64,000 bases of DNA, taken from an uncultured Actinomycetota bacterium (GTDB lineage Bacteria > Actinomycetota > Actinomycetes > Mycobacteriales > Pseudonocardiaceae). The stretch lies in assembly GCA_963730945.1 (NCBI GenBank), contig CAVSTV010000006.1, positions 25,612 through 89,611 of the forward strand, read 5' to 3'. Positions 19,806 to 34,069 of this stretch are shown in pieces (position 1 is the first letter of the stretch; every line of letters starts with the position of its first letter). The position numbers and the translations under genes are program-made. The notes below the pieces were generated by a model that was given only the letters and a program-made list of their open reading frames with translations, searched no databases and was not told where the DNA came from.

Positions 19806-21005
19806 TCAGGTGGACGGGGGCAGGAAAGCCGGGCGCTGGCTCGGGTCCGGCTCGTCGTAGTAGCGGTGGAAGACCCCGGTCAGGCTGCCGGACACCGGTG
19901 GCACGATCCAGCTCCAGTCCGCCGGGCAGTGCCGCCCGGCGTACTGCTCCCTGGCCACGTGCAGCAGGAACCGCTCGGACTCGGTGTGATGATCGGCCAT
20001 CGTCACCCCGGCCACGTCGAACGAGTGCTGCACCGCGTGCACCAGCTCGACCAGCGCCCGGTCCCGCCACATCGTGCGGTCCGATGCGGTGTCCAGCCCG
20101 AGCTCCCGCGCGATCACCGGGAGCAGGTTGTAGCGATCGGCGTCGGTGAGGTTGCGGGCCCCGATCTCGGTGCCGAGGTACCAACCGTTGAACGGGGTGG
20201 CCGGGTAGGTGACGCCGCCGATGACCAGCGGCATGTTGCTGATCGCCGGCACCGCGTGCCAGCGCAGCCGCAGCGCCGCGAACCACTCGTGATCGGGATG
20301 GATCAACGGCACCTCGAGCACCGCGTCCGGGGGCAGCTCGACGATCTCCGGTCCGGCCCCGCCGCGGGACACCAGCAGCGGCAGCACGTCGAACCGGCCC
20401 GGCGGATCGGGCCGGGACCAGCCCAGCTCGACGGCGCGGTCGGTGAGCTCGACGTAGCGGCGGTCGCCGCGCACGTCACCGGAGGGCAGGCTGTGTCCGG
20501 CGTAGCGGATCAGCTGGTCGTTGTGGATGCGCGGGCCGGGATGGTCCGGCCGGTCCGGCGCGAAGATCGTGATCGTCGACCTGATCCGGCCGCCGCGGGT
20601 GGCGTCGCGCAGGTGCTCGACGCATTCGGCACCGACCTCGGCCGGGGCGCCGACCTCGCGGCGATCCCGGATGCGCAGGCTGTTCCAGTACAGCCTGCCG
20701 ATGCAGCGGGCCGAGTTCCGCCAGGCGACCCTGGCCCCGAACGTCAGTTCCGCGGAGGTGTGGTGGTAGCAGCCGGTCCTGGCGATCTCGCCGCGGACCT
20801 GGGCGAGCCGGCTGCTGAGCGGCATCGGGGGCGAGGTCTCGGCGTAGAACTGGGTCAGGAACTCGGTGGCCGCTTCCGGGTCCACCGCGGCCGGTGCCGG
20901 TGGCGCGGCGTCGATGAGCGGTGCGGTGCTGTGGGCCGGGCAGCGAGCGGTCGGCATGTCCGTCGCGGGTGTGGCGGTGTTCTCGGGCGCAGAAAGTACC
21001 GTCAC
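19806..21005 (-). CDS. nos: Bacterial nitric oxide synthase, oxygenase domain only
   Basis: AWRNSARCIGRLYW heme-thiolate motif, NDQLIRYAG, PFNGWYLGTEIGARNL, DHHT, ADWSWIVPP. Confidence 0.95.
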   Translation of the reverse strand: MTVLSAPENTATPATDMPTARCPAHSTAPLIDAAPPAPAAVDPEAATEFLTQFYAETSPPMPLSSRLAQVRGEIARTGCYHHTSAELTFGARVAWRNSARCIGRLYWNSLRIRDRREVGAPAEVGAECVEHLRDATRGGRIRSTITIFAPDRPDHPGPRIHNDQLIRYAGHSLPSGDVRGDRRYVELTDRAVELGWSRPDPPGRFDVLPLLVSRGGAGPEIVELPPDAVLEVPLIHPDHEWFAALRLRWHAVPAISNMPLVIGGVTYPATPFNGWYLGTEIGARNLTDADRYNLLPVIARELGLDTASDRTMWRDRALVELVHAVQHSFDVAGVTMADHHTESERFLLHVAREQYAGRHCPADWSWIVPPVSGSLTGVFHRYYDEPDPSQRPAFLPPST

Positions 21006-21144
21006 ACGGCCTCCTTACGTCAGGTGGCCGGCAGCGAGCCGGCGGGGGATGCAGAACCCCGGTGCGGTGCTCGGCACCCGGTCCCGGACTGGTCTTCCTT
21101 TCCGTGGCGATCCCCCCGCCGCTGTCCGCTCCCTTTACTACACG

Positions 21145-25946: not shown

Positions 25947-27459
25947 GTGTCCCTCGAGCGCATCGACCCCGAGTTCCGGGCCATCCCGCTCGCGCTGCTG
26001 GCCGACGCGGCCCTCGAGCCAGGCCCGCGAGCTGGGTGCCGAGCACGCCGACCTGCGGGTCGAACGGATCGTCTCGCAGTCGTTGCAGCTGCGCGACGGC
26101 CAGGTCATCGGCGTCGTCGACGCCACCACCGTCGGGCTCGCGGTGCGGGTGCTCGTCGAGGGGGTCTGGGGTTTCGCCTCGCACGTGGAGCTGACCGCGG
26201 ACCGGGCCGCGGCCGTGGCCGAGCACGCGGTCGCGGTGGCGCGCACGCTCACCCCGGTCGCGGTCGAGCGGGTGGATCGGGCCGCGGAACCGGTGCACGC
26301 CGACGCGGTCTGGGTGTCGCCGTACGCCGTCGACCCGTTCACCGTCCCGACCGGGGAGAAGGTCGAGTTGCTGACCGACTGGTCGCAGCGGCTGCTGGCG
26401 GCCGACGGCGTCGACCACGTGCGGGCCGCGGTGACGATGGTGCGCGAGAACAAGTTCTACGCCGACCTCGCGGGCACCAGCACCACCCAGCAGCGGGTTC
26501 GCATCGCGCCGACGCTCACCGCCATCGCCGTCGACCGGGCCGCCGGCGGCTTCGAGACGATGGATTCGCTGGCCCCGCCGTCCGGCCGCGGCTGGGAGTA
26601 CGTCACCGGCGACGGCTGGGACTTCGCCGGCGAGCTGGCGACGATCCCGGAGCTGCTGACCGAGAAGGCGAAGGCGCCCAGCGTCGCGGCCGGCCGCTAC
26701 GACCTGGTGATCGACCCGACCAACCTGTGGCTGACCATCCACGAGTCCGTCGGGCACGCCACCGAGTACGACCGCGCGATCGGCTACGAGGCCGCCTACG
26801 CGGGCACCAGCTTCGCCACTCCCGACCTGCTGGGCACGCTGCGCTACGGCTCCGAGCTGATGCACGTCACCGGCGACCGCACCCAGGAGCACGGCCTGGC
26901 CAGCACCGGGTTCGACGACGACGGCGTGGCCACCACCGAATGGGACCTGGTGCGGGACGGGATCCTGGTCGGCTACCAGCTCGACCGCACGTTCGCGCCG
27001 CGGCTGGGCCTGGACCGCAGCAACGGCTGCGCGTTCGCCGATTCCCCCCATCACGTGCCCATCCAGCGCATGGCCAACGTATCGCTGCGCCCCGACCCGG
27101 GCCGCGACACCAGCACCGACGAGCTGATCGCCGGCGTCGAGCGCGGCATCTACGTCGTCGGGGATAAGTCCTGGTCGATCGACATGCAGCGCTACAACTT
27201 CCAGTTCACCGGGCAGCGGTTCTACGCCATCGAGGGCGGTCGGCTCGCCGGGCAGCTGCGCGACGTCGCCTATCAGGCCACCACGACCGACTTCTGGGGC
27301 TCGCTCGACGGCCTCGGCGGCGCCTCCACCTGGATGCTGCAGGGTGCGATGAACTGCGGAAAGGCGCAGCCGGGACAGATCGCCGCGGTCAGCCACGGCT
27401 GCCCGTCCGCCCGGTTCCGCGGGGTGAGCGTGCTGAACACGCGGGAGGAGGGCCGGTGA
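25947..27459 (+). pseudogene. tldD: TldD-family metalloprotease, frameshifted near 26016
   Basis: Start reads MSLERIDPEFRAIPLALLADAAL, then continues in another frame as SQARELGAEHADLR; HESVGHATE metal motif; MNCGKAQPGQ C-terminal motif. Confidence 0.9.
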
Positions 27460-27544
27460 GCGAGCTTGCGAGCGAACCGATGTCACAGCGCCAGCGCGCT
27501 CAGCCGCTTCTCGATGGGCTGACCGAGCGCAGCGAGGGAATGCG
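27456..27544. repeat. Actinobacterial REP-like intergenic element
   Basis: GAGCGAGCTTGCGAGCGAACC...TCAGCC/GGCTGA hairpin...GACCGAGCGCAGCGAGGGA inserted between otherwise coupled tldD and pmbA. Confidence 0.6.
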
Positions 27545-28930
27545 ATGAGCACGCGGATGCGGGCGCAGGAGGTCGTGGAGCGCACGCTGGCGGCCGCGGC
27601 GGCGCTGCACGGCTGCGCGGTGCTGGTCAGCGAGTCGAGCGAGGCCGTGCTGCGCTGGGCGAACTCGACGATGACCACCAACGGGCACAGCACCTCGAGC
27701 TCGGTCACGGTGATCGCCTTCGTGGCCCTCGACGGCGGCACGGCGGCCGGGGTGGCCGCCAGCAGCGCGGCGGTCACCGACCCCGGCCAGCTGGAGGTGC
27801 TGGTGCGCCGCGCCGAGGCCGCGGCCCGTGATGCCGGGCCGGCCGAGGACGCGATGCCGCTGCCGGAGCCGACCGAGGCCGACCCGAGCTGGGACGACGA
27901 CGCCGGCGCCACCTCGATCGGCGTCTTCTCGGCGTTCGTCGAAGGGCTGGCCGAGGTGCTCGCCGGACCGCAGCGGCAGTACGGCTTCGCCACGCACAGC
28001 GTCACGACCAGCTGGCTCGGCACCTCCGCCGGGGTGCGCCGGCGTTGGGTGCAGCCGACCGGTTCGGTGGAACTCAACGCGAAGACCGCCGATCTGAGCA
28101 GCTCCGCGTGGGCCGGGGTGTCCACCATGGACTTCACCGACGTCGATGTGGTGGCGCTCGCGGCCTCAGCGGGGGCCCGGTTGGCCTGGGGGCAGCGCAA
28201 GATCGAGCTCCCGGCCGGGCGCTACGAGACGCTGCTACCCACCTCGGCCGTCGCCGATCTGATGCTCTTCCTGGCGTGGTCGATGGACGGCCGCCCGGCA
28301 CACGAGGGCCGCAGCGCGCTCGCCGGCCCGGACGGCCCGCGCACCGGCGAACGGCTCACCGAGCTACCACTCACGCTGACCTGCGATCCGGGCGCGCCGG
28401 GCCTGGAGTACCAGCCGTTCGTCTCGACCGCGTGGTCCGGCGACGGGATCAGCATCTTCGACAACGGAGCCCCGAGCCGCCGCGTGGACTGGGTGCGCGC
28501 CGGCGTGGTCAACGAGCTGGGCTACTCCCGGGCCGAGGCCGCCGAGTTCGGCACCACGTTCACCCCGATGGGCGGGAACCTGCTGCTCACCGGCGGTTCC
28601 CAGGCGAGCCTCGAGGATCTGGTCGGGCGCACCGAACGCGGCCTGCTGCTGACCTGCCTCTGGTACGTGCGCGAGGTCGACCCGGCCACCCTGCTGCTGA
28701 CCGGGCTGACCCGGGACGGGGTGTACCTCGTGGAGAAGGGCGAGGTCGTCGCCGAGGTGGACCACAACTTCCGCTTCAACTACTCCCCGCTCGACGTGCT
28801 GCGCCGCACCACCGAGGTCGGCGCCACCCGGCGCACCCTGCCTCGGGAGATGGACGGCTACACGCGGGCGGCGATGCCCCCGATGCGGGTGCCGGAGTTC
28901 AACATGTCGTCAGTGTCGCTGGGCCGTTAG
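27545..28930 (+). CDS. PmbA/TldE-like partner of TldD
   Basis: LRWANSTMTTNG, LPAGRYETLLP, GLLLTCLWYVREVDP, LLTGLTRDGVYLVE. Confidence 0.85.
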   Translation: MSTRMRAQEVVERTLAAAAALHGCAVLVSESSEAVLRWANSTMTTNGHSTSSSVTVIAFVALDGGTAAGVAASSAAVTDPGQLEVLVRRAEAAARDAGPAEDAMPLPEPTEADPSWDDDAGATSIGVFSAFVEGLAEVLAGPQRQYGFATHSVTTSWLGTSAGVRRRWVQPTGSVELNAKTADLSSSAWAGVSTMDFTDVDVVALAASAGARLAWGQRKIELPAGRYETLLPTSAVADLMLFLAWSMDGRPAHEGRSALAGPDGPRTGERLTELPLTLTCDPGAPGLEYQPFVSTAWSGDGISIFDNGAPSRRVDWVRAGVVNELGYSRAEAAEFGTTFTPMGGNLLLTGGSQASLEDLVGRTERGLLLTCLWYVREVDPATLLLTGLTRDGVYLVEKGEVVAEVDHNFRFNYSPLDVLRRTTEVGATRRTLPREMDGYTRAAMPPMRVPEFNMSSVSLGR

Positions 28931-29270
28931 CCCGCCGTTAGCCCTCGTCAGCCAGGTCGCCAGGGCCGTTGGGTTAGCGTTAGCCCGCCTTTGCGCGCGG
29001 CTTCGGTGATCGTTCCGAGCGGCACATGGTGGATCCGAGCAGGTCGTTCCTGTGACTCCCGCAATGATCAGTGCCGCCTGACGAGCCCGGCTGTCCTCGA
29101 CCCGGCATGGACACCCCGGTGTGGGCCGGGCCCACTCCCCCGCGACCGACACCGGGTCGCGTGGACTGCCGGGCTGTTGACTGTTGTTGCTCATGCTGGC
29201 GTCACTCCAGATGCGCGCGTCGTAGCGAGCGGCATCGTCACTGTGGCGGCCGGATCGTCCCGATGTCGCG

Positions 29271-29477
29271 GCGCGGGTGTCCGTCGTTGTCGGCGCCGGC
29301 GCACAGGTGCTGCCGCGCCGCTCCCGCTCCTCGGCGCCGAGGAGCCTGCGGTGCGGGTCGGCTTGCACTCGTCTGCCCTGGTCCATCTGAGCAGGACTCA
29401 TGTTCACGTTGCGTCGCTCACGTGCACTCGCGATCGTCTGCACGGCCAGTGACGGGACGTGTGCATGTCGAACGCCG
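29271..29477 (+). repeat. Left arm of a ~208-bp inverted repeat flanking the DUF222/HNH gene
   Basis: Reverse complement of 31511-31719; manual alignment gives 7 substitutions and 2 single-base indels. Confidence 0.95.
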
Positions 29478-29538
29478 TCCTAACAGCGGTGTCGATTCTT
29501 GCAGTCGCGCGCCGCGGCGGTTCGGTTCGCGGTCGTTG

Positions 29539-31400
29539 TCAGAAGGGTGGGTCGTCGGGGATCGGGTGGCCCGGCGGTGCTGGTTCGGGTGGGGCGGGTG
29601 GTGGTTCGGGTTCGGGGTCGTCGGGGAAGTAGTCGCGGTAGTCGTGGGGTCGGCTGGTGTGGCGGTGCCCGGTGGGGGTGATCCAGATCAGGGTGCCGTC
29701 GGGGTGGGAGATGACGTGCCAGCCGGGTTGGTCTTTCAGCGCGTGGTGTTGGGGGCAGAGGCCGTGCAGGTTGGCCTCGTTGGTGTCGCCGTCTTGGGCC
29801 CAGGGTTGGAGGTGGTCGAGGTCGCAGTCGATGGCGCGGCGGTTGCAGATGGGGAATCGGCAGGTCACGTCCCGGGCTTTGACGAAGTCGTGGAGGGCGG
29901 CGGGTGGTCGGTAGGTGCGGCGGCCGTGGTCGAGCAGGGCACCGCTGACCGGGTCGGTGATCAGGCGTTTCCAGACGGCGTCGGTGGCGGTGTGGCGGGC
30001 GAGGTCGGCGGGGATGGGGCCGTAGCCGACGAGTTCGGCGGGTAGCTGGTGGGTGCCGGTGAGGGTGTCGAGTCCGATGACGATCTGCACCAGTGGCTTC
30101 CCACCACCACTGCCGCTGTTGTTGCTGCCGGCGGCGCCGCAGGTGCAGCCGGTGCGACGAGCGGGGTTGGTGCGGGGTGGCCACCCGGCCGGCCGGCGGT
30201 CCGGTCGGCGGGCTCCTCGGGTGTCGCCGCCGGTGCCGGTGTCGGTGCCGGTGTCGGTGTCGGTGTCGGTGGCCGCGGTCGGCGTTGTGGCCGCACCGGT
30301 GTCATCGGTGTGTACACCGGCCATATCGCCGGTGCCGGTGTCGCTGTCGGTCGCGGTGTCGCTGTCGGTCGCGAACTCGTCATCGGTCGCGGGCTCGTCA
30401 TCGGTCGCGGGCTCGTCATCGGTCGCGGGCTCGTCATCGGTCGCGGTGCTCGTCATCGGTCGTGGTGTTGTCGGTGGCGCTGTCCGCGGTGTCGTCGTCG
30501 GTGGCGGTGTCGTCGTAGTGGGTGTGGGTGAGGCGGCCGGTGATGAGGTCGACGAGTAGGTCGGCGCGGCGGGCGTCCATAGGCCGGGGGTCGTCGGGGC
30601 CAAGGCTGCGGGCCAGGCGGGTCAGGGTGTGCCAGCCGGTGGCGGCGTCGGTGGCCGAGAGCAGCGCCCACAGGCTGGACATGCCGTCCTCGTCGTGGTG
30701 CACCGCGACCCGGCGTTCGCGGTGCGCGGCGCCGTGGCGCCGGTTGGCGCCGTCGGGGTCCACGCGCAGCACGGCACGGCGTACCGCGGCCCGGAACTGG
30801 GTCCAGGTTTGTGTCCCGGCGGCGGGCAGCACCCGGTCCTGGACCTGGCGGGCCTGCTCGGGGCTCAGCACGGTGAGCAGTTCGCACAGCACCCGGGCTT
30901 GGCCGGCGTCGATGGTGCCGGCCTGCCACGCGGCCAGGGTGTCGGGCAGGGTGCGGGTCAGGATGATCGACTGGGCCAGTTCGGTGCTGGCCGCGGGGCG
31001 GCTGATCCCGAGGGCGAGGCCGAGTTCATCGGGGGCCCACCGCGAGGCCACGCTGGGGCGGGGGCAGGATGACGGCTTGGGGTTCGTCGCCGGGGCGGCG
31101 GCGGGCGAACTCGGCGATCAGGCGGGTGCGGCGGGCTTGGGCCCAGCGGGTGAGGTGGTCGAACGCGACGATGGTGTCCAGCAGCGCGGTGTCGGTGAGC
31201 AGCGCCGGTTCGGCGGCGGCGTGCTCGGCGTCGAGGGCGAGCTCGCCGTCGGGCAGGCACTCGGCCAGGCCGTAGGTGGGGGCGTCGTCGTCGGGTTGGG
31301 AGTAGACGCCGGGGGCGGTGGGGATGTAGTCGTGGTTGCGGGCGGCGCGTTCGGTGGGGGTGATCGCGAACACCTCAGTCGGATCCGCGGTGTCGAACAT
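29539..31400 (-). pseudogene. DUF222 (13E12-repeat family) HNH endonuclease, with two apparent frameshifts (~31060 and 30447)
   Basis: Three consecutive ORF pieces: MFDTAD...RWAQARRTRLIAEFARRR; SRWAPDELGLALGIS...RRADLLVDL; AELVGYGPIPA...RDVTCRFPIC...CDLDH...N..NLHGLCPQHHALK. Confidence 0.9.
30367..30460 (-). repeat. 18-bp tandem repeat (TDDEPA) x5 inside the DUF222 linker; the first unit on the coding strand has 19 bp and shifts the frame
   Basis: ACCGATGACGAGCCCGCG units; the aberrant unit is ACCGATGACGAGCACCGCG. Confidence 0.9.
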
Positions 31401-31408
31401 GTGTTCGA
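31393..31408. promoter_or_regulatory. LexA (SOS) box overlapping the DUF222 start codon, with an adjacent TATACT -10 element
   Basis: TCGAAC-ATGT-GTTCGA matches the actinobacterial consensus TCGAAC-N4-GTTCGA; minus-strand TATACT at 31413-31408. Confidence 0.85.
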
Positions 31409-31510
31409 GTATAGCGGCCAGAACTGCGGTTATCAAGCCGAATGACGGGCTCCTTGACGGGATCCTTCGACCTCGTACGACGCGCCCGCCGCACGCTGCC
31501 CGGTGACGCC

Positions 31511-31719
31511 CGGCGTTCGACATGCACACGCCCCGTCACTGGCCGTGCAGACGATCGCGAGTGCACGCGAGCGACTCCAACCTGAACATGAGTCCTGCTC
31601 AGATGGACCAGGACCGACGAGGGCAAGCCGACCCGCACCGCAGGCTCCTCGGCGCCGAGGAGCGGGAGCGGCGCGGCAGCACCTCGTGCGCCGGCGCCGA
31701 CAACGACGGACACCCGCGC
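31511..31719 (-). repeat. Right arm of the ~208-bp inverted repeat
   Basis: Reverse complement of 29271-29477; contains the same 20-bp palindrome GCTCCTCGGCGCCGAGGAGC (31644-31663). Confidence 0.95.
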
Positions 31720-31934
31720 GCGCCGCGCAATCGTGAGACCGCCCGGTCGCCCGAAGGTGCGACGGTGATTCGGCCTGCCGTGGGCGAACCGCTCATTGAC
31801 CGGGCTGAGCGACTCGCCGCGCTACGGCGTGGCTTCCGACCCTGGACGAGTCCGATGCCGTTCACTGTGGGCACGCGGGGGTCGGTGAGTTCCCGGTCGG
31901 CCGCCGCGGTGCTGGTGAGCGAGAGGGGCCGGCC

Positions 31935-32231
31935 GTGCCGTACGAGGTCGTAAGCGCGTACACGCTGCTCGTCGGCGACGTCCATTCATCGCCCACGGTC
32001 AGCGTGCACACCAAGGCCGACGACGCCTGGCGGGCGCTGGACACCGAGGTCCGCAGCCGCTGCGGGATGCGACCCCGGCCGCGCCGCGAGATGGACGCCG
32101 ACGCCGCTACCCGGCTGGCCAACGCGTGGCGTGCCGGCGACCCGGAATGCCGCTACTGGAACCTCACCGTGCACCGGTTGCCGGTCCCGGTGCCGGTGAT
32201 CGCCCAGCTGCCGCTGGCCCTCGCCCGCTGA
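31935..32231 (+). CDS. Hypothetical protein
   Basis: 98 aa, GAGAGG RBS, high-GC3 codon usage. Confidence 0.55.
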   Translation: MPYEVVSAYTLLVGDVHSSPTVSVHTKADDAWRALDTEVRSRCGMRPRPRREMDADAATRLANAWRAGDPECRYWNLTVHRLPVPVPVIAQLPLALAR

Positions 32232-32258
32232 CGTCCGCTCACGCCGGACCCCGGCATC

Positions 32259-33140
32259 ATGGTGCCGGTGTTCCCGCTGCCCGCCCGGCTCGCCGCGAGC
32301 GCGGCCGTCGATCCGGAACGCCGGGACTGGCTCGCCGGACTGCCCGACGCCGTGCACGGCCTGGCCGCGCGCTGGGCGTTGACCCTCGGCCCGCCGTTCC
32401 AGCCCGGCGGTGAGGTGTCCTGGGTGGCGCCGGCCCGGGACCCGGCCGGGCGCGATCTCGTACTCAAGATCGGCTGGCGACATGTCGACGCCGCGCAGGA
32501 GGCGGCCGGGCTGCGCGCCTGGTCCGAGCGTGGCGCGGTGCGGTTGTACGCGGCGCACGACGAGGGCGCCCACTGCGGGCTGCTGCTCGAACGCTGCCGG
32601 CCGGGCACCACGCTGGCGATGGGCCGATCCGGGTCCGAGCAGGACGAGGTGGTGGCCGTGCTGCTGCGCCGGCTGTGGCACGAACCCCCACCCGGACACC
32701 CGTTCCGATCGCTGGTGCAGCTCTGCGACGAATGGGCCGCGGAGTTCGAGATCGACTACGCCCGCCAGCCGAACGCCCTCGATCCCGGCATCGCCCGGGC
32801 CGGGATGGAGCTGTTCCGCGGCCTGCCCCGCGAGCACCGACCCGACCTGCTGCTCACCACCGACCTGCACGCGGGCAACGTGCTCGCCGCGCACCGCGAA
32901 CCGTGGCTGGTGATCGACCCGAAACCGCACGTCGGGGACCCGACCTACGACGTGCTGCAACACCTGCTCAACTGTCCCGAGCGGCTGACCGCCGATCCCG
33001 GCGGCCTCGCCGACCGGCTCTCGGCGCTGCTCGATCTCGACGCGCACCGGGTCCGGCGCTGGCTGTTCGCCCGCTGCGTGCAGGAATGCGTGCAGCAGCC
33101 CTGGCTGCGACCGGTGGCGAGCGCGATCGCCCCGACCTGA
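32259..33140 (+). CDS. Aminoglycoside/hydroxyurea resistance kinase family (APH(6)-like) phosphotransferase
   Basis: VLKIG, LLLERCRPG, DLHAGNVL Brenner motif, VIDPKP..GDP.YD. Confidence 0.85.
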   Translation: MVPVFPLPARLAASAAVDPERRDWLAGLPDAVHGLAARWALTLGPPFQPGGEVSWVAPARDPAGRDLVLKIGWRHVDAAQEAAGLRAWSERGAVRLYAAHDEGAHCGLLLERCRPGTTLAMGRSGSEQDEVVAVLLRRLWHEPPPGHPFRSLVQLCDEWAAEFEIDYARQPNALDPGIARAGMELFRGLPREHRPDLLLTTDLHAGNVLAAHREPWLVIDPKPHVGDPTYDVLQHLLNCPERLTADPGGLADRLSALLDLDAHRVRRWLFARCVQECVQQPWLRPVASAIAPT

Positions 33141-33147
33141 CGGCCGG

Positions 33148-33546
33148 TCACTCGTGGTCGTGCTCGGCGGCCTCGGCATCGGCTTTCGTCGCGTGCACGG
33201 TGCCGTCGGGGTGTTCCGGCGGTGCGTACAGCGAGTAGAGCCGCAGCTCGGAGTCGCCGACGTTGCGGACGTTGTGCCAGGTAGCGGCGGGCACGATGAT
33301 CGCCCAGTCGTCCTCGACCGCCCGCGTCTCGTCGACGGCGTCCCCGGACCTCCCGAGGTCGACCTCGCCCCGCCCCTGCTCGATGCGCAGGAACTGGTCG
33401 AGGTGGCCGTGCGCCTCCCAGCCGATGTCCTCTCCCGGCTGCAGGCACATCAGCGTGAGCTGGGTGTGACCGCCGGTGAAGAGGACCCTGCGGAAGTCGG
33501 AGTTGTCGAGGGTGAGCTTCTCGATGTCGCTGATCCAGCCGAGCAT
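33148..33546 (-). CDS. Cupin domain protein
   Basis: NSDFRRVLFTG, EAHGHLDQFLRIEQG, WHNVRN, LYSLYAPPEH. Confidence 0.9.
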   Translation of the reverse strand: MLGWISDIEKLTLDNSDFRRVLFTGGHTQLTLMCLQPGEDIGWEAHGHLDQFLRIEQGRGEVDLGRSGDAVDETRAVEDDWAIIVPAATWHNVRNVGDSELRLYSLYAPPEHPDGTVHATKADAEAAEHDHE

Positions 33547-33601
33547 GTGCTCCTTCTACCCGACCACGACGCAGTACACGCGATCGGATATCCCAGCCGG
33601 G

Positions 33602-34069
33602 CTAGATGTTGTGATGGGGCTGGTCGTGATGGCGCTGGTCGTAGGGGCCCTGGTTGGGGTGCGTGCTGATCTCGTTGGCCGGGCGGGTGTCGACGCCGCG
33701 ATCGGCCAGTCGCTCCTGCACCTGCTCGGAGATGGTGTCCGAGCGCCGACGCTCGCGGACCCGGATCAGCACCAGCATCGAGATCCCGTACGCGATGCCC
33801 AGCACCAGCAGCACCACCCCGAGCCGCGTGATGAACCGTTGCAGCGGCTCGGCCGGCCCGAGATCGATCCCGAGGATCATTGCCAGCACGCCCAGGGTGA
33901 TCAGGTGGAAGAGCACCGACAGCAGCAGGTTCACCGAGCGGGTGACCGAGCGGTCCTGGAAGACCTCCTGCAGGAACGGCTCACCCGCGGTCACCAACAA
34001 CCGTCCGACCAGGAAGGTCAGGCCGATCGACACCAATAGCAGGGTGATGTACTGCGCGTTCTCGTCCAT
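33602..34069 (-). CDS. Hypothetical membrane protein (3 TM)
   Basis: GEPFLQEVF...SVNLLLSVLFHL...LGVVLLVLG; GGAG RBS. Confidence 0.7.
   Translation of the reverse strand: MDENAQYITLLLVSIGLTFLVGRLLVTAGEPFLQEVFQDRSVTRSVNLLLSVLFHLITLGVLAMILGIDLGPAEPLQRFITRLGVVLLVLGIAYGISMLVLIRVRERRRSDTISEQVQERLADRGVDTRPANEISTHPNQGPYDQRHHDQPHHNI

Follow-up and report, generated by a model that had tools for sequence, protein, structure and literature searches.

Why a single DUF222/HNH nuclease gene should stand between two long inverted repeats is the question raised by a 64,000-nucleotide (nt) stretch of DNA, here called the window, from an uncultured actinomycetotal bacterium of the Pseudonocardiaceae (GenBank assembly GCA_963730945.1, contig CAVSTV010000006.1, positions 25,612 to 89,611 of the forward strand). 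DUF222/HNH "13E12" repeats are abundant in Actinomycetota, including Mycobacterium tuberculosis, are induced by the SOS response, and drive gene conversion and large inversions. To our knowledge, neither their function nor their mode of spread is known. A first-pass annotation of the window had proposed that the repeats, or arms, are either the ends of a self-mobilizing or invertible DUF222 unit or a pair of copies of some dispersed element that targets, or is mobilized by, these nucleases. We arrive at a different account. The block is probably, though by no means certainly, a decaying REP13E12-type unit with a hairpin module upstream of the gene and a local, inverted duplicate of that module, and not a mobile module that is bounded by inverted repeats or able to invert.

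The inverted repeat itself is as the annotation described it. In a gapped self-comparison, arm L (29271-29477, plus strand) and arm R (31511-31719, minus strand) are 95.7% identical over 209 aligned nt, and a fainter similarity fades over ~20 nt outward, from ~29250 and to ~31742. The gapless blocks are 100% (29271-29304/31686-31719), 96% (29305-29411/31578-31684), and 97% (29413-29477/31511-31575) identical. A chimeric fold-back during assembly could create such a pair, and the source genome looks metagenome derived (19 contigs, 6.24 Mb, 93% complete), with short soil-metagenome contigs matching the region at only ~2-4x and other runs holding the paralogues of relatives. The arms, however, differ at 7 substitutions and 2 insertions or deletions (indels) and enclose 2 kb of sequence in a unique orientation, which is unlike a fold-back chimera. 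Moreover, short contigs of run X1 match 29332-29480 and both ends of the gene at 98-100%. An assembly artifact is hardly credible as the source of the repeat.

What recurs elsewhere is not the arm but its center. A 251-nt query from arm L found two copies in the 6.24-Mb genome, both of them here, and a covariance model of the arm core (R1) returned the same two places, at 80.4 bits each, with the next best match at 22.9 bits. Each arm is centered on a hairpin of ~62 to 72 nt, one at 29305-29376 on the plus strand (R1 E value 1e-16) and the other at 31613-31684 on the minus strand. The flanks of the core that the arms share (110 nt on the 3' side and 37 to 57 nt on the 5' side) occur nowhere else, and arm-specific 24- to 26-mers had no match in the metagenome collection. 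When relatives were searched with arm L, only ~60 nt from the arm center were recovered, at 83-92% identity. The 208-bp arm was thus rejected as a dispersed repeat, and the search that the first-pass annotation had suggested traced a core of ~62 nt instead.

The core has the marks of a conserved structure. In an alignment of 32 distinct cores (A2), three helices are supported: P1 (GCCG/CGGC), P2 (CCGC/GCGG), and an apical P3 (CTCCTCG/CGAGGAG in copy L of the window). Paired cells make up 96.2% of the total, 8 of 13 pairs have changed on both sides, and double changes occupy 26 cells versus 4.0 in shuffled alignments, with 0 of 500 shuffles attaining the observed values. When the 3' partners were slid as a control, pairing fell to 29-47%. 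RNAalifold independently gave the same helices, and the fold is stable at approximately -46 to -49 kcal/mol for 85 nt. Coding was rejected as the reason for arm conservation: the outward open reading frames (ORFs; MSPAQMDQ...) had no Pfam match, codon periodicity was weak, and the loop indels are not multiples of 3. Core loop lengths differ by 1, 2, and 4 nt, which excludes a coding explanation. A search of Rfam 15 returned nothing at an E value of ≤1 for positions 27000-34000 of the window and nothing on the core at an E value of ≤0.1 for 7 other loci, so a known RNA family was rejected as well. Literature searches by sequence words and by topic found no description of the hairpin.

Where the core lies in other Pseudonocardia genomes indicates which of the two arms is native. 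A core consensus search placed it in 33 of 137 genomes at 1 to 7 or more copies each, counts that are lower bounds with six candidates scored per genome. At 22 of 40 fetched loci, the core is followed 40 to 300 bp on by a DUF222/HNH gene on the same strand. Arm R has this orientation and position, and we conclude from the 22 loci that it is the normal upstream module of the unit. In two genomes (G122 and G127), all six cores of each are linked to DUF222 genes of the top-scoring DUF222 subfamily, out of 32 and 50 DUF222 matches in total, respectively. In G127, the repeated unit extends from a point 20 to 60 nt before the core to the stop codon, and in both genomes the DUF222 unit takes along a particular variant of the core (GCTG/CAGC, GGCCC/GGGCC). 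At one unit of G127 (L102, C11 at about 186-194 kb), a 1.9-kb insertion lies exactly between hairpin module and gene, at unit position ~4162.

Arm L, on the other hand, has almost no counterpart. It reads on the plus strand as the reverse complement of arm R and thus points into the 3' end of the gene. At one other locus, in G011 (L050/L187), a core follows the 3' end of a DUF222 gene that converges on it, and at one locus (L049) a core upstream of DUF222 has the opposite orientation. Among ~130 other loci scanned with R1 there was no inverted core pair, and none of three near-identical paralogues of the gene or of ~35 other hairpin-bearing DUF222 units in congeners had an inverted partner. 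REPIN-like doublets were therefore rejected as the usual form of the element, and the two cores on G096:C330 belong to two separate elements. The inverted pair of the window is a one-off. The same scan showed direct tandem doublets ~100-215 nt apart in G013 (L045, L046, and L043), in G060 (L082, 4001-5134), and at L130 and L164. These arrays combine full cores and half cores, the latter with the 3' half swapped for GGTGGCGGCAGCGCAGC, which is able to pair with the conserved 5' GCTGCCGC.

The gene between the arms (29539-31400, minus strand) is of the DUF222 plus HNH, REP13E12 type, and the annotation had taken it to be a single intact gene. Its reading frame is instead broken into three overlapping ORFs in three frames: 31529-31026 (of which the piece from the ATG is 31400-31026), 31051-30434, and 30603-29539. 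Alignment with an intact paralogue (98.7% identical over 1,878 nt) shows that it has two additional bases and no more, one at 31069 and one at 30447; each is a +1 frameshift, and neither falls within a homopolymer run. PF02720 matched two of the fragments (E values 3.6e-18, 66 bits, and 9.5e-07). The HNH motif fared in between: the D-H...N...H-H residues are visible in the translation of 29539-30603, as had been claimed, but PF01844 scored 16.8 bits (E value 0.0074), under its cutoff of 21.4. As assembled, the gene thus reads as a pseudogene, although the frameshifts may be sequencing errors since the genome looks metagenome derived. A contig from a different organism does not have the extra base at 31069.

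The genome holds 24 DUF222 matches, this locus included, and three of them are close paralogues of the window gene. These lie at C14:232938-234872, C8:86101-88236, and C9:319720-321807 by tblastn, with frames open over 677 to 744 codons, and are 98.7%, ~93%, and ~90-92% identical to the window gene by blastn, respectively. The four genes differ in the number of 12- and 18-nt tandem repeats (30216-30520, minus strand; direct-repeat families D1 to D3) that encode a T/D/E/P-rich linker of TDDEPA units, and one of the frameshifts falls inside these linker repeats. The segment common to all three paralogues (29513-31449, minus strand) comprises the gene, a promoter stretch of ~40 bp, and no more than 26 nt past the stop. 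The arms stand 61 nt outside this homology on each side, and no flanking inverted repeat was found at the C14, C8, or C9 paralogue. Thus, the arms are not a trait of this DUF222 family in this genome. The C8 paralogue has an unrelated, near-perfect palindrome of 43 nt (GAACGAACGGCACGTTCGC...GCGAACGTGCCGTTCG) ~95-135 nt upstream, another hairpin beside a DUF222 gene.

Control of the gene appears to be ordinary for its family. A perfect LexA box of the form TCGAAC-N4-GTTCGA (TCGAACATGTGTTCGA, 31393-31408) lies on the gene start, as had been noted, and is the sole match in the window, where 0.08 is expected by chance. The predicted box overlaps the ATG (31400-31398) and abuts a -10 element, TATACT (31408-31413, minus strand), so the mRNA is probably leaderless. 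The same layout of LexA box and ATG is found in units of G127, G122, G051, G065, G068, and G013, ~115-275 bp downstream of the core, and 13E12/DUF222 genes are known to be under LexA/SOS control (PMC3381160).

Whether the locus is an insertion was asked of the host flanks. On the left is pmbA (27545-28930, plus strand), which encodes a TldE-type metallopeptidase (PF19289/PF01523), and on the right is a conserved gene of 98 amino acids (aa), orfX (31935-32231, plus strand), which has no Pfam match and has an orthologue in congeners. In seven congeners, pmbA (72-79% aa identity) is followed by the orfX orthologue after 100 to 430 bp. By blastn and tblastn (L031-L039), nucleotide homology to the congeners breaks off at 28926-28938 and restarts at 31917-31933, so a block of ~2.98 kb (28939-31916) is an insertion relative to these congeners, which are distant at about 78% nt identity; the block takes in the two arms together with approximately 340 and 200 bp of DNA beyond them. 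These congeners therefore have the empty site that the annotation had called for. Short direct repeats (GGGCCGTTAGCCC/CGTTAGCCC) occupy 28921-28986, right after the pmbA stop, in the extra segment left of arm L.

Could the arms nevertheless bound a self-mobilizing or invertible unit, as first proposed, and serve as terminal inverted repeats for the HNH nuclease or as flip-flop recombination sites? They do enclose a single nuclease gene, the 13E12 genes of M. tuberculosis act as hot spots of recombination and give rise to inversions (PMC13157036), and homologous recombination between 208-bp inverted repeats is physically possible. The pair, however, is the only one of its kind in the genome and among the ~130 loci, and the paralogues are without arms. 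Moreover, as the annotation had noted, no target-site duplication is visible at the outer ends (29250-29271/31719-31742) and no transposase or recombinase gene is nearby, with none found within ~10 kb; the block itself holds only the broken DUF222/HNH gene. Finally, the promoter, LexA box, and ATG are all inside the segment, so inversion would not alter the regulation of the gene. A self-mobilizing or programmed invertible module is very improbable, and we consider that reading largely refuted.

We propose instead that a selfish unit of the REP13E12 type entered the pmbA-orfX spacer. In Pseudonocardia, such a unit would consist of a noncoding hairpin module followed by a leaderless, LexA-repressed DUF222/HNH gene and would end at the stop codon. 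Arm R would be the upstream module in its usual place and orientation. Arm L would be a second, inverted copy of ~210-230 bp just past the 3' end of the gene, the product of a local, one-off event that may have been either an inverted duplication of the upstream module or the loss of the gene from a second, convergent unit that left a remnant. A long perfect palindrome is an unstable structure that usually undergoes asymmetric deletion. The gene body may have been kept 90-99% identical to the paralogues by duplication or gene conversion that stops ~40 bp before the ATG on one side and at the stop codon on the other, and would since have gained its two frameshifts and now be decaying. At most, RecA could now and then use the arms to invert the segment between them. 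How arm L arose, the gene conversion, and any function of the hairpin are steps that we infer, and we note that gene conversion and recombination are frequent at 13E12 repeats (PMC13061034, PMC13157036).

How far the hairpin extends beyond the genus bears on what it is. A pattern of 35 fixed bases with one variable gap matched at least 119 stretches in a collection of species-representative genomes. The matches listed include Salinispora, Micromonospora, Phytohabitans, Pilimelia, Virgisporangium, Nonomuraea, Streptosporangium, Planobispora, Herbidospora, Frankia, Parafrankia, Pseudofrankia, Saccharothrix, and Pseudonocardia, as well as metagenome-assembled genomes of Sporichthyaceae, Dermatophilaceae, and Acidimicrobiales. 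Two further matches are on plasmids, one of them from Amycolatopsis, where the core is unannotated or within a "hypothetical protein," and the core was absent from a phage collection. Between genera, homology mostly stops 0 to 30 nt from the core. A DUF222/HNH gene stands beside the core at ~16 of 80 phylum-wide loci, mainly in Pseudonocardia and Phytohabitans, and the other neighbors are ordinary genes plus an excess of mobile-DNA genes (tyrosine recombinases, IS110, IS3, HNH_2, TrwC relaxase, and Prim-Pol). At three loci (L126, L151, and L173), the end of an IS110-family transposase gene lies 147-148 nt from the core on its 3' side, and an IS3 (rve) gene and an HNH_2 gene are similarly placed elsewhere (L133 and L130). 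The idea of two copies of a dispersed, nuclease-linked element thus holds in part: the hairpin at the arm center is dispersed and, in Pseudonocardia, strongly linked to the 5' side of DUF222 genes, but the whole arm is unique to this locus, and most copies outside the genus have no DUF222 neighbor. The hairpin represents a separate, widely dispersed, and probably mobile family of structured elements, members of which lie in or beside DUF222 units of the genus, at the 5' boundary.

The position of the hairpin among host genes could suggest that it acts in RNA, as a terminator, an insulator, or a stabilizer of 3' ends, in which case the arms would shield a toxic SOS nuclease gene from read-through on both sides and the inverted repeat would be a by-product. 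The leaderless look of the DUF222 promoters would leave the hairpin outside the gene's own mRNA, the fold is a stable one, and phylum-wide the core often comes shortly after a co-oriented gene (upstream neighbor 28 "+" versus 15 "-") or between convergent genes. No U-tract, however, follows the hairpin on either strand, and internal loops that are invariant across orders are atypical of terminators. Nor would termination explain the insertions inside integrase genes described below. The strand is a further difficulty. Stems of 83 distinct cores, read on the DUF222-sense strand, contain 1,023 Watson-Crick pairs, 27 A-C, 5 G-U, and 24 other combinations, and the excess of A-C over G-U suggests that the complement of the DUF222 sense is the strand that folds, as RNA or as single-stranded DNA. 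Counted as independent events, the numbers are roughly 15 versus 5, and the significance is only moderate. This hint is at odds with the fact that copies tend to come after co-oriented genes. A function at the RNA level is doubtful on balance.

Several observations weigh against a decaying unit with a duplicated module. The origin of arm L was not directly observed, and the G011 locus, where a convergent DUF222 gene likewise has a core beyond its 3' end, indicates that the layout of arm L may not be pure accident. The DUF222 subfamily of the resident gene (long T/D-rich linker, 65 bits) differs from that of the usual core carriers, and its three paralogues are without a core; together, these imply that the cassette may have landed between existing elements and not beside an arm R of its own. 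Finally, the frameshifts could be assembly errors of a metagenome-derived genome.

Perhaps, then, the hairpins came first. One or two mobile, noncoding hairpin elements might have occupied the spacer, and a DUF222 cassette, the gene with its 40-bp promoter, might have inserted beside or between them; the DUF222/HNH nuclease or break repair would then prefer hairpin DNA as a place to cut or land. The subfamily mismatch, the coreless paralogues, the end of paralogue homology 61 nt inward of each arm, and the G011 locus would all fit such an order of events. So would a core that ranges over many orders, far more widely than its link to DUF222, and that also adjoins IS110, IS3, HNH_2, and integrase genes. 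In G127 and G122, however, the core variant moves with the DUF222 unit and the repeat boundary is upstream of the core, and the core there is part of what duplicates. Moreover, this genome holds no further core copies that could have been sources, and no empty site with arms only was seen. We grant the landing of a cassette between hairpins, the main rival, some chance, but a decaying unit with its own upstream module is the account that we prefer.

The same core also turned up in a 337-nt element that has no ORF and that interrupts tyrosine-recombinase genes. On the left, a part of ~225 nt starts with AARTGRGCRGAGTTGC; on the right, a part of ~50 nt ends with ...TACCAGTT, and a second subfamily ends with ...GTTATCCACAGTT. 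The occupied site (L240, G131) reads ...AGCAACCTCG[337 nt]CCGATGCC... and the empty site (L242, G140) reads ...AGCAACATCGCTGACGCC..., such that the insertion is defined to the base, and a comparison of the two sites reveals neither a duplicated target nor a clear terminal inverted repeat. Copies lie at 2633-2969 of L240 (G131), 4787-5122 of L051 (G008), and about 100-440 of L252. The element always has the orientation of its host gene and lies seven codons beyond the RH of the hxLRHxxAT box, and at least seven different integrase genes are hit (in G131, G008, L160, L169, L190/L111, L198, and G096), with only the left junction found at L178. The left flanks differ (CTCG, CTCA, TTCA, CTGC, and ATGC). 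When the element was removed in silico, the G131 and G008 proteins became intact; they are only 28.5% identical to each other, and their elements are 79% identical. Removal at the same boundaries restored the frame in four genes and was one base off in two. G131 has ORF-less copies and no core-linked DUF222 gene, and thus a requirement for the nuclease in cis is unsupported. Group I and group II introns were rejected for the 337-nt element, as Rfam gave no match and there is no U at the 5' junction and no G at the 3' end. A group II intron does lie at 235-832 of L051 (RF01999, 86.5 bits; RF00029, 50.9 bits), a few kilobases from the interrupted G008 integrase.

Which known elements the 337-nt form resembles is a matter of degree. 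As a site-specific insertion, it is reminiscent of IS200/IS605-type or homing elements. Like the IS200/IS605 and IS91-type single-strand transposons and PATEs, it has no target-site duplication or clear terminal inverted repeat, keeps one orientation, carries a strand-biased hairpin, and can be removed to restore the host frame. Unlike them, it has no common tetranucleotide before its left end, and no HUH transposase was seen beside its copies, though no dedicated transposase search was made. Moreover, its target is a codon position in tyrosine recombinases, more like the targeting of introns and homing endonucleases. Homing introns and free-standing HNH homing genes likewise insert repeatedly at one conserved site, here after the RHxxAT box, and the same module stands beside an HNH gene elsewhere. 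The 337-nt form, however, has no Rfam group I or II signature, lacks splice-site hallmarks by eye, and has stem mismatches that favor the strand antisense to the host gene, and the ORF-bearing and ORF-less forms have only the 62-nt core in common.

The core also invites comparison with REP and REPIN sequences (BIMEs): both are short, structured, mostly intergenic repeats that often lie at gene 3' ends or between convergent genes, occur in several copies per genome, and show compensatory changes in their stems. REPs are species specific, whereas the core sequence is conserved across orders in its 35 fixed bases. Copy numbers of the core are low (1 to 12), and among the loci scanned, inverted doublets occur only in this window. 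No RAYT (HUH Y1) gene turned up, though no search was aimed at one.

The unit itself is closest to the REP13E12 units of M. tuberculosis and other Actinomycetota. It shares with them DUF222 (PF02720) with a putative C-terminal HNH motif, multiple copies, a LexA box on the promoter or start, a repeat unit of roughly gene length that ends near the stop codon, and paralogues homogenized by recombination (PMC3381160, PMC13061034, PMC13157036). It differs in that the window copy is frameshifted and its hairpin module is duplicated in inverted orientation. Moreover, units of Pseudonocardia and Phytohabitans have the covarying hairpin 40 to 300 bp upstream, and we found no such description in the literature.

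We speculate further that, within Actinomycetota, the hairpin of 62 to 72 nt may characterize a new class of mobile elements that are site specific, make no target-site duplication, and fold on one strand only. The ORF-less forms of ~337 nt would home to the tyrosine-recombinase codon position and other sites. The DUF222-HNH "REP13E12" units would be the forms with an ORF, and their nuclease would recognize the folded hairpin and drive copying by break repair. The window would then have caught a cassette between two hairpin elements. We regard this wider model as rather unlikely as it stands.

The neighbors of the locus are housekeeping genes. Downstream of orfX is a gene for an APH(6)-like kinase (32259-33140), and the neighbors include genes for a nitric oxide synthase, a TrmB-like methyltransferase, DUF2339, TldD, PmbA, the APH-like kinase, a cupin, a PEP mutase, and CstA. 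The bacterial nitric oxide synthase oxygenase-domain gene (19809-21014, minus strand; PF02898, E value 2e-138) lies ~8 kb upstream.

Ultimately, no transposon-like DUF222 element is revealed here. For a member of the 13E12 family, both the gene and its control by SOS are ordinary, and the bracket of inverted repeats is a local curiosity. Following the arms, however, uncovered a covarying, cross-order hairpin that is absent from Rfam and that, in Pseudonocardia and Phytohabitans, delimits entire DUF222 subfamilies on their 5' side. As far as our searches reach, the upstream module, its conservation across orders, and its integrase-targeting, ORF-less relatives are undescribed in the literature, and the hairpin family and the integrase-targeting element may matter more than the inverted repeat. 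The hairpin is a new dispersed structured element to catalogue and a testable candidate for a cis-acting partner of DUF222 nucleases. If true, a nuclease that recognizes the hairpin would provide the long-sought mode of spread of the DUF222/13E12 repeats.

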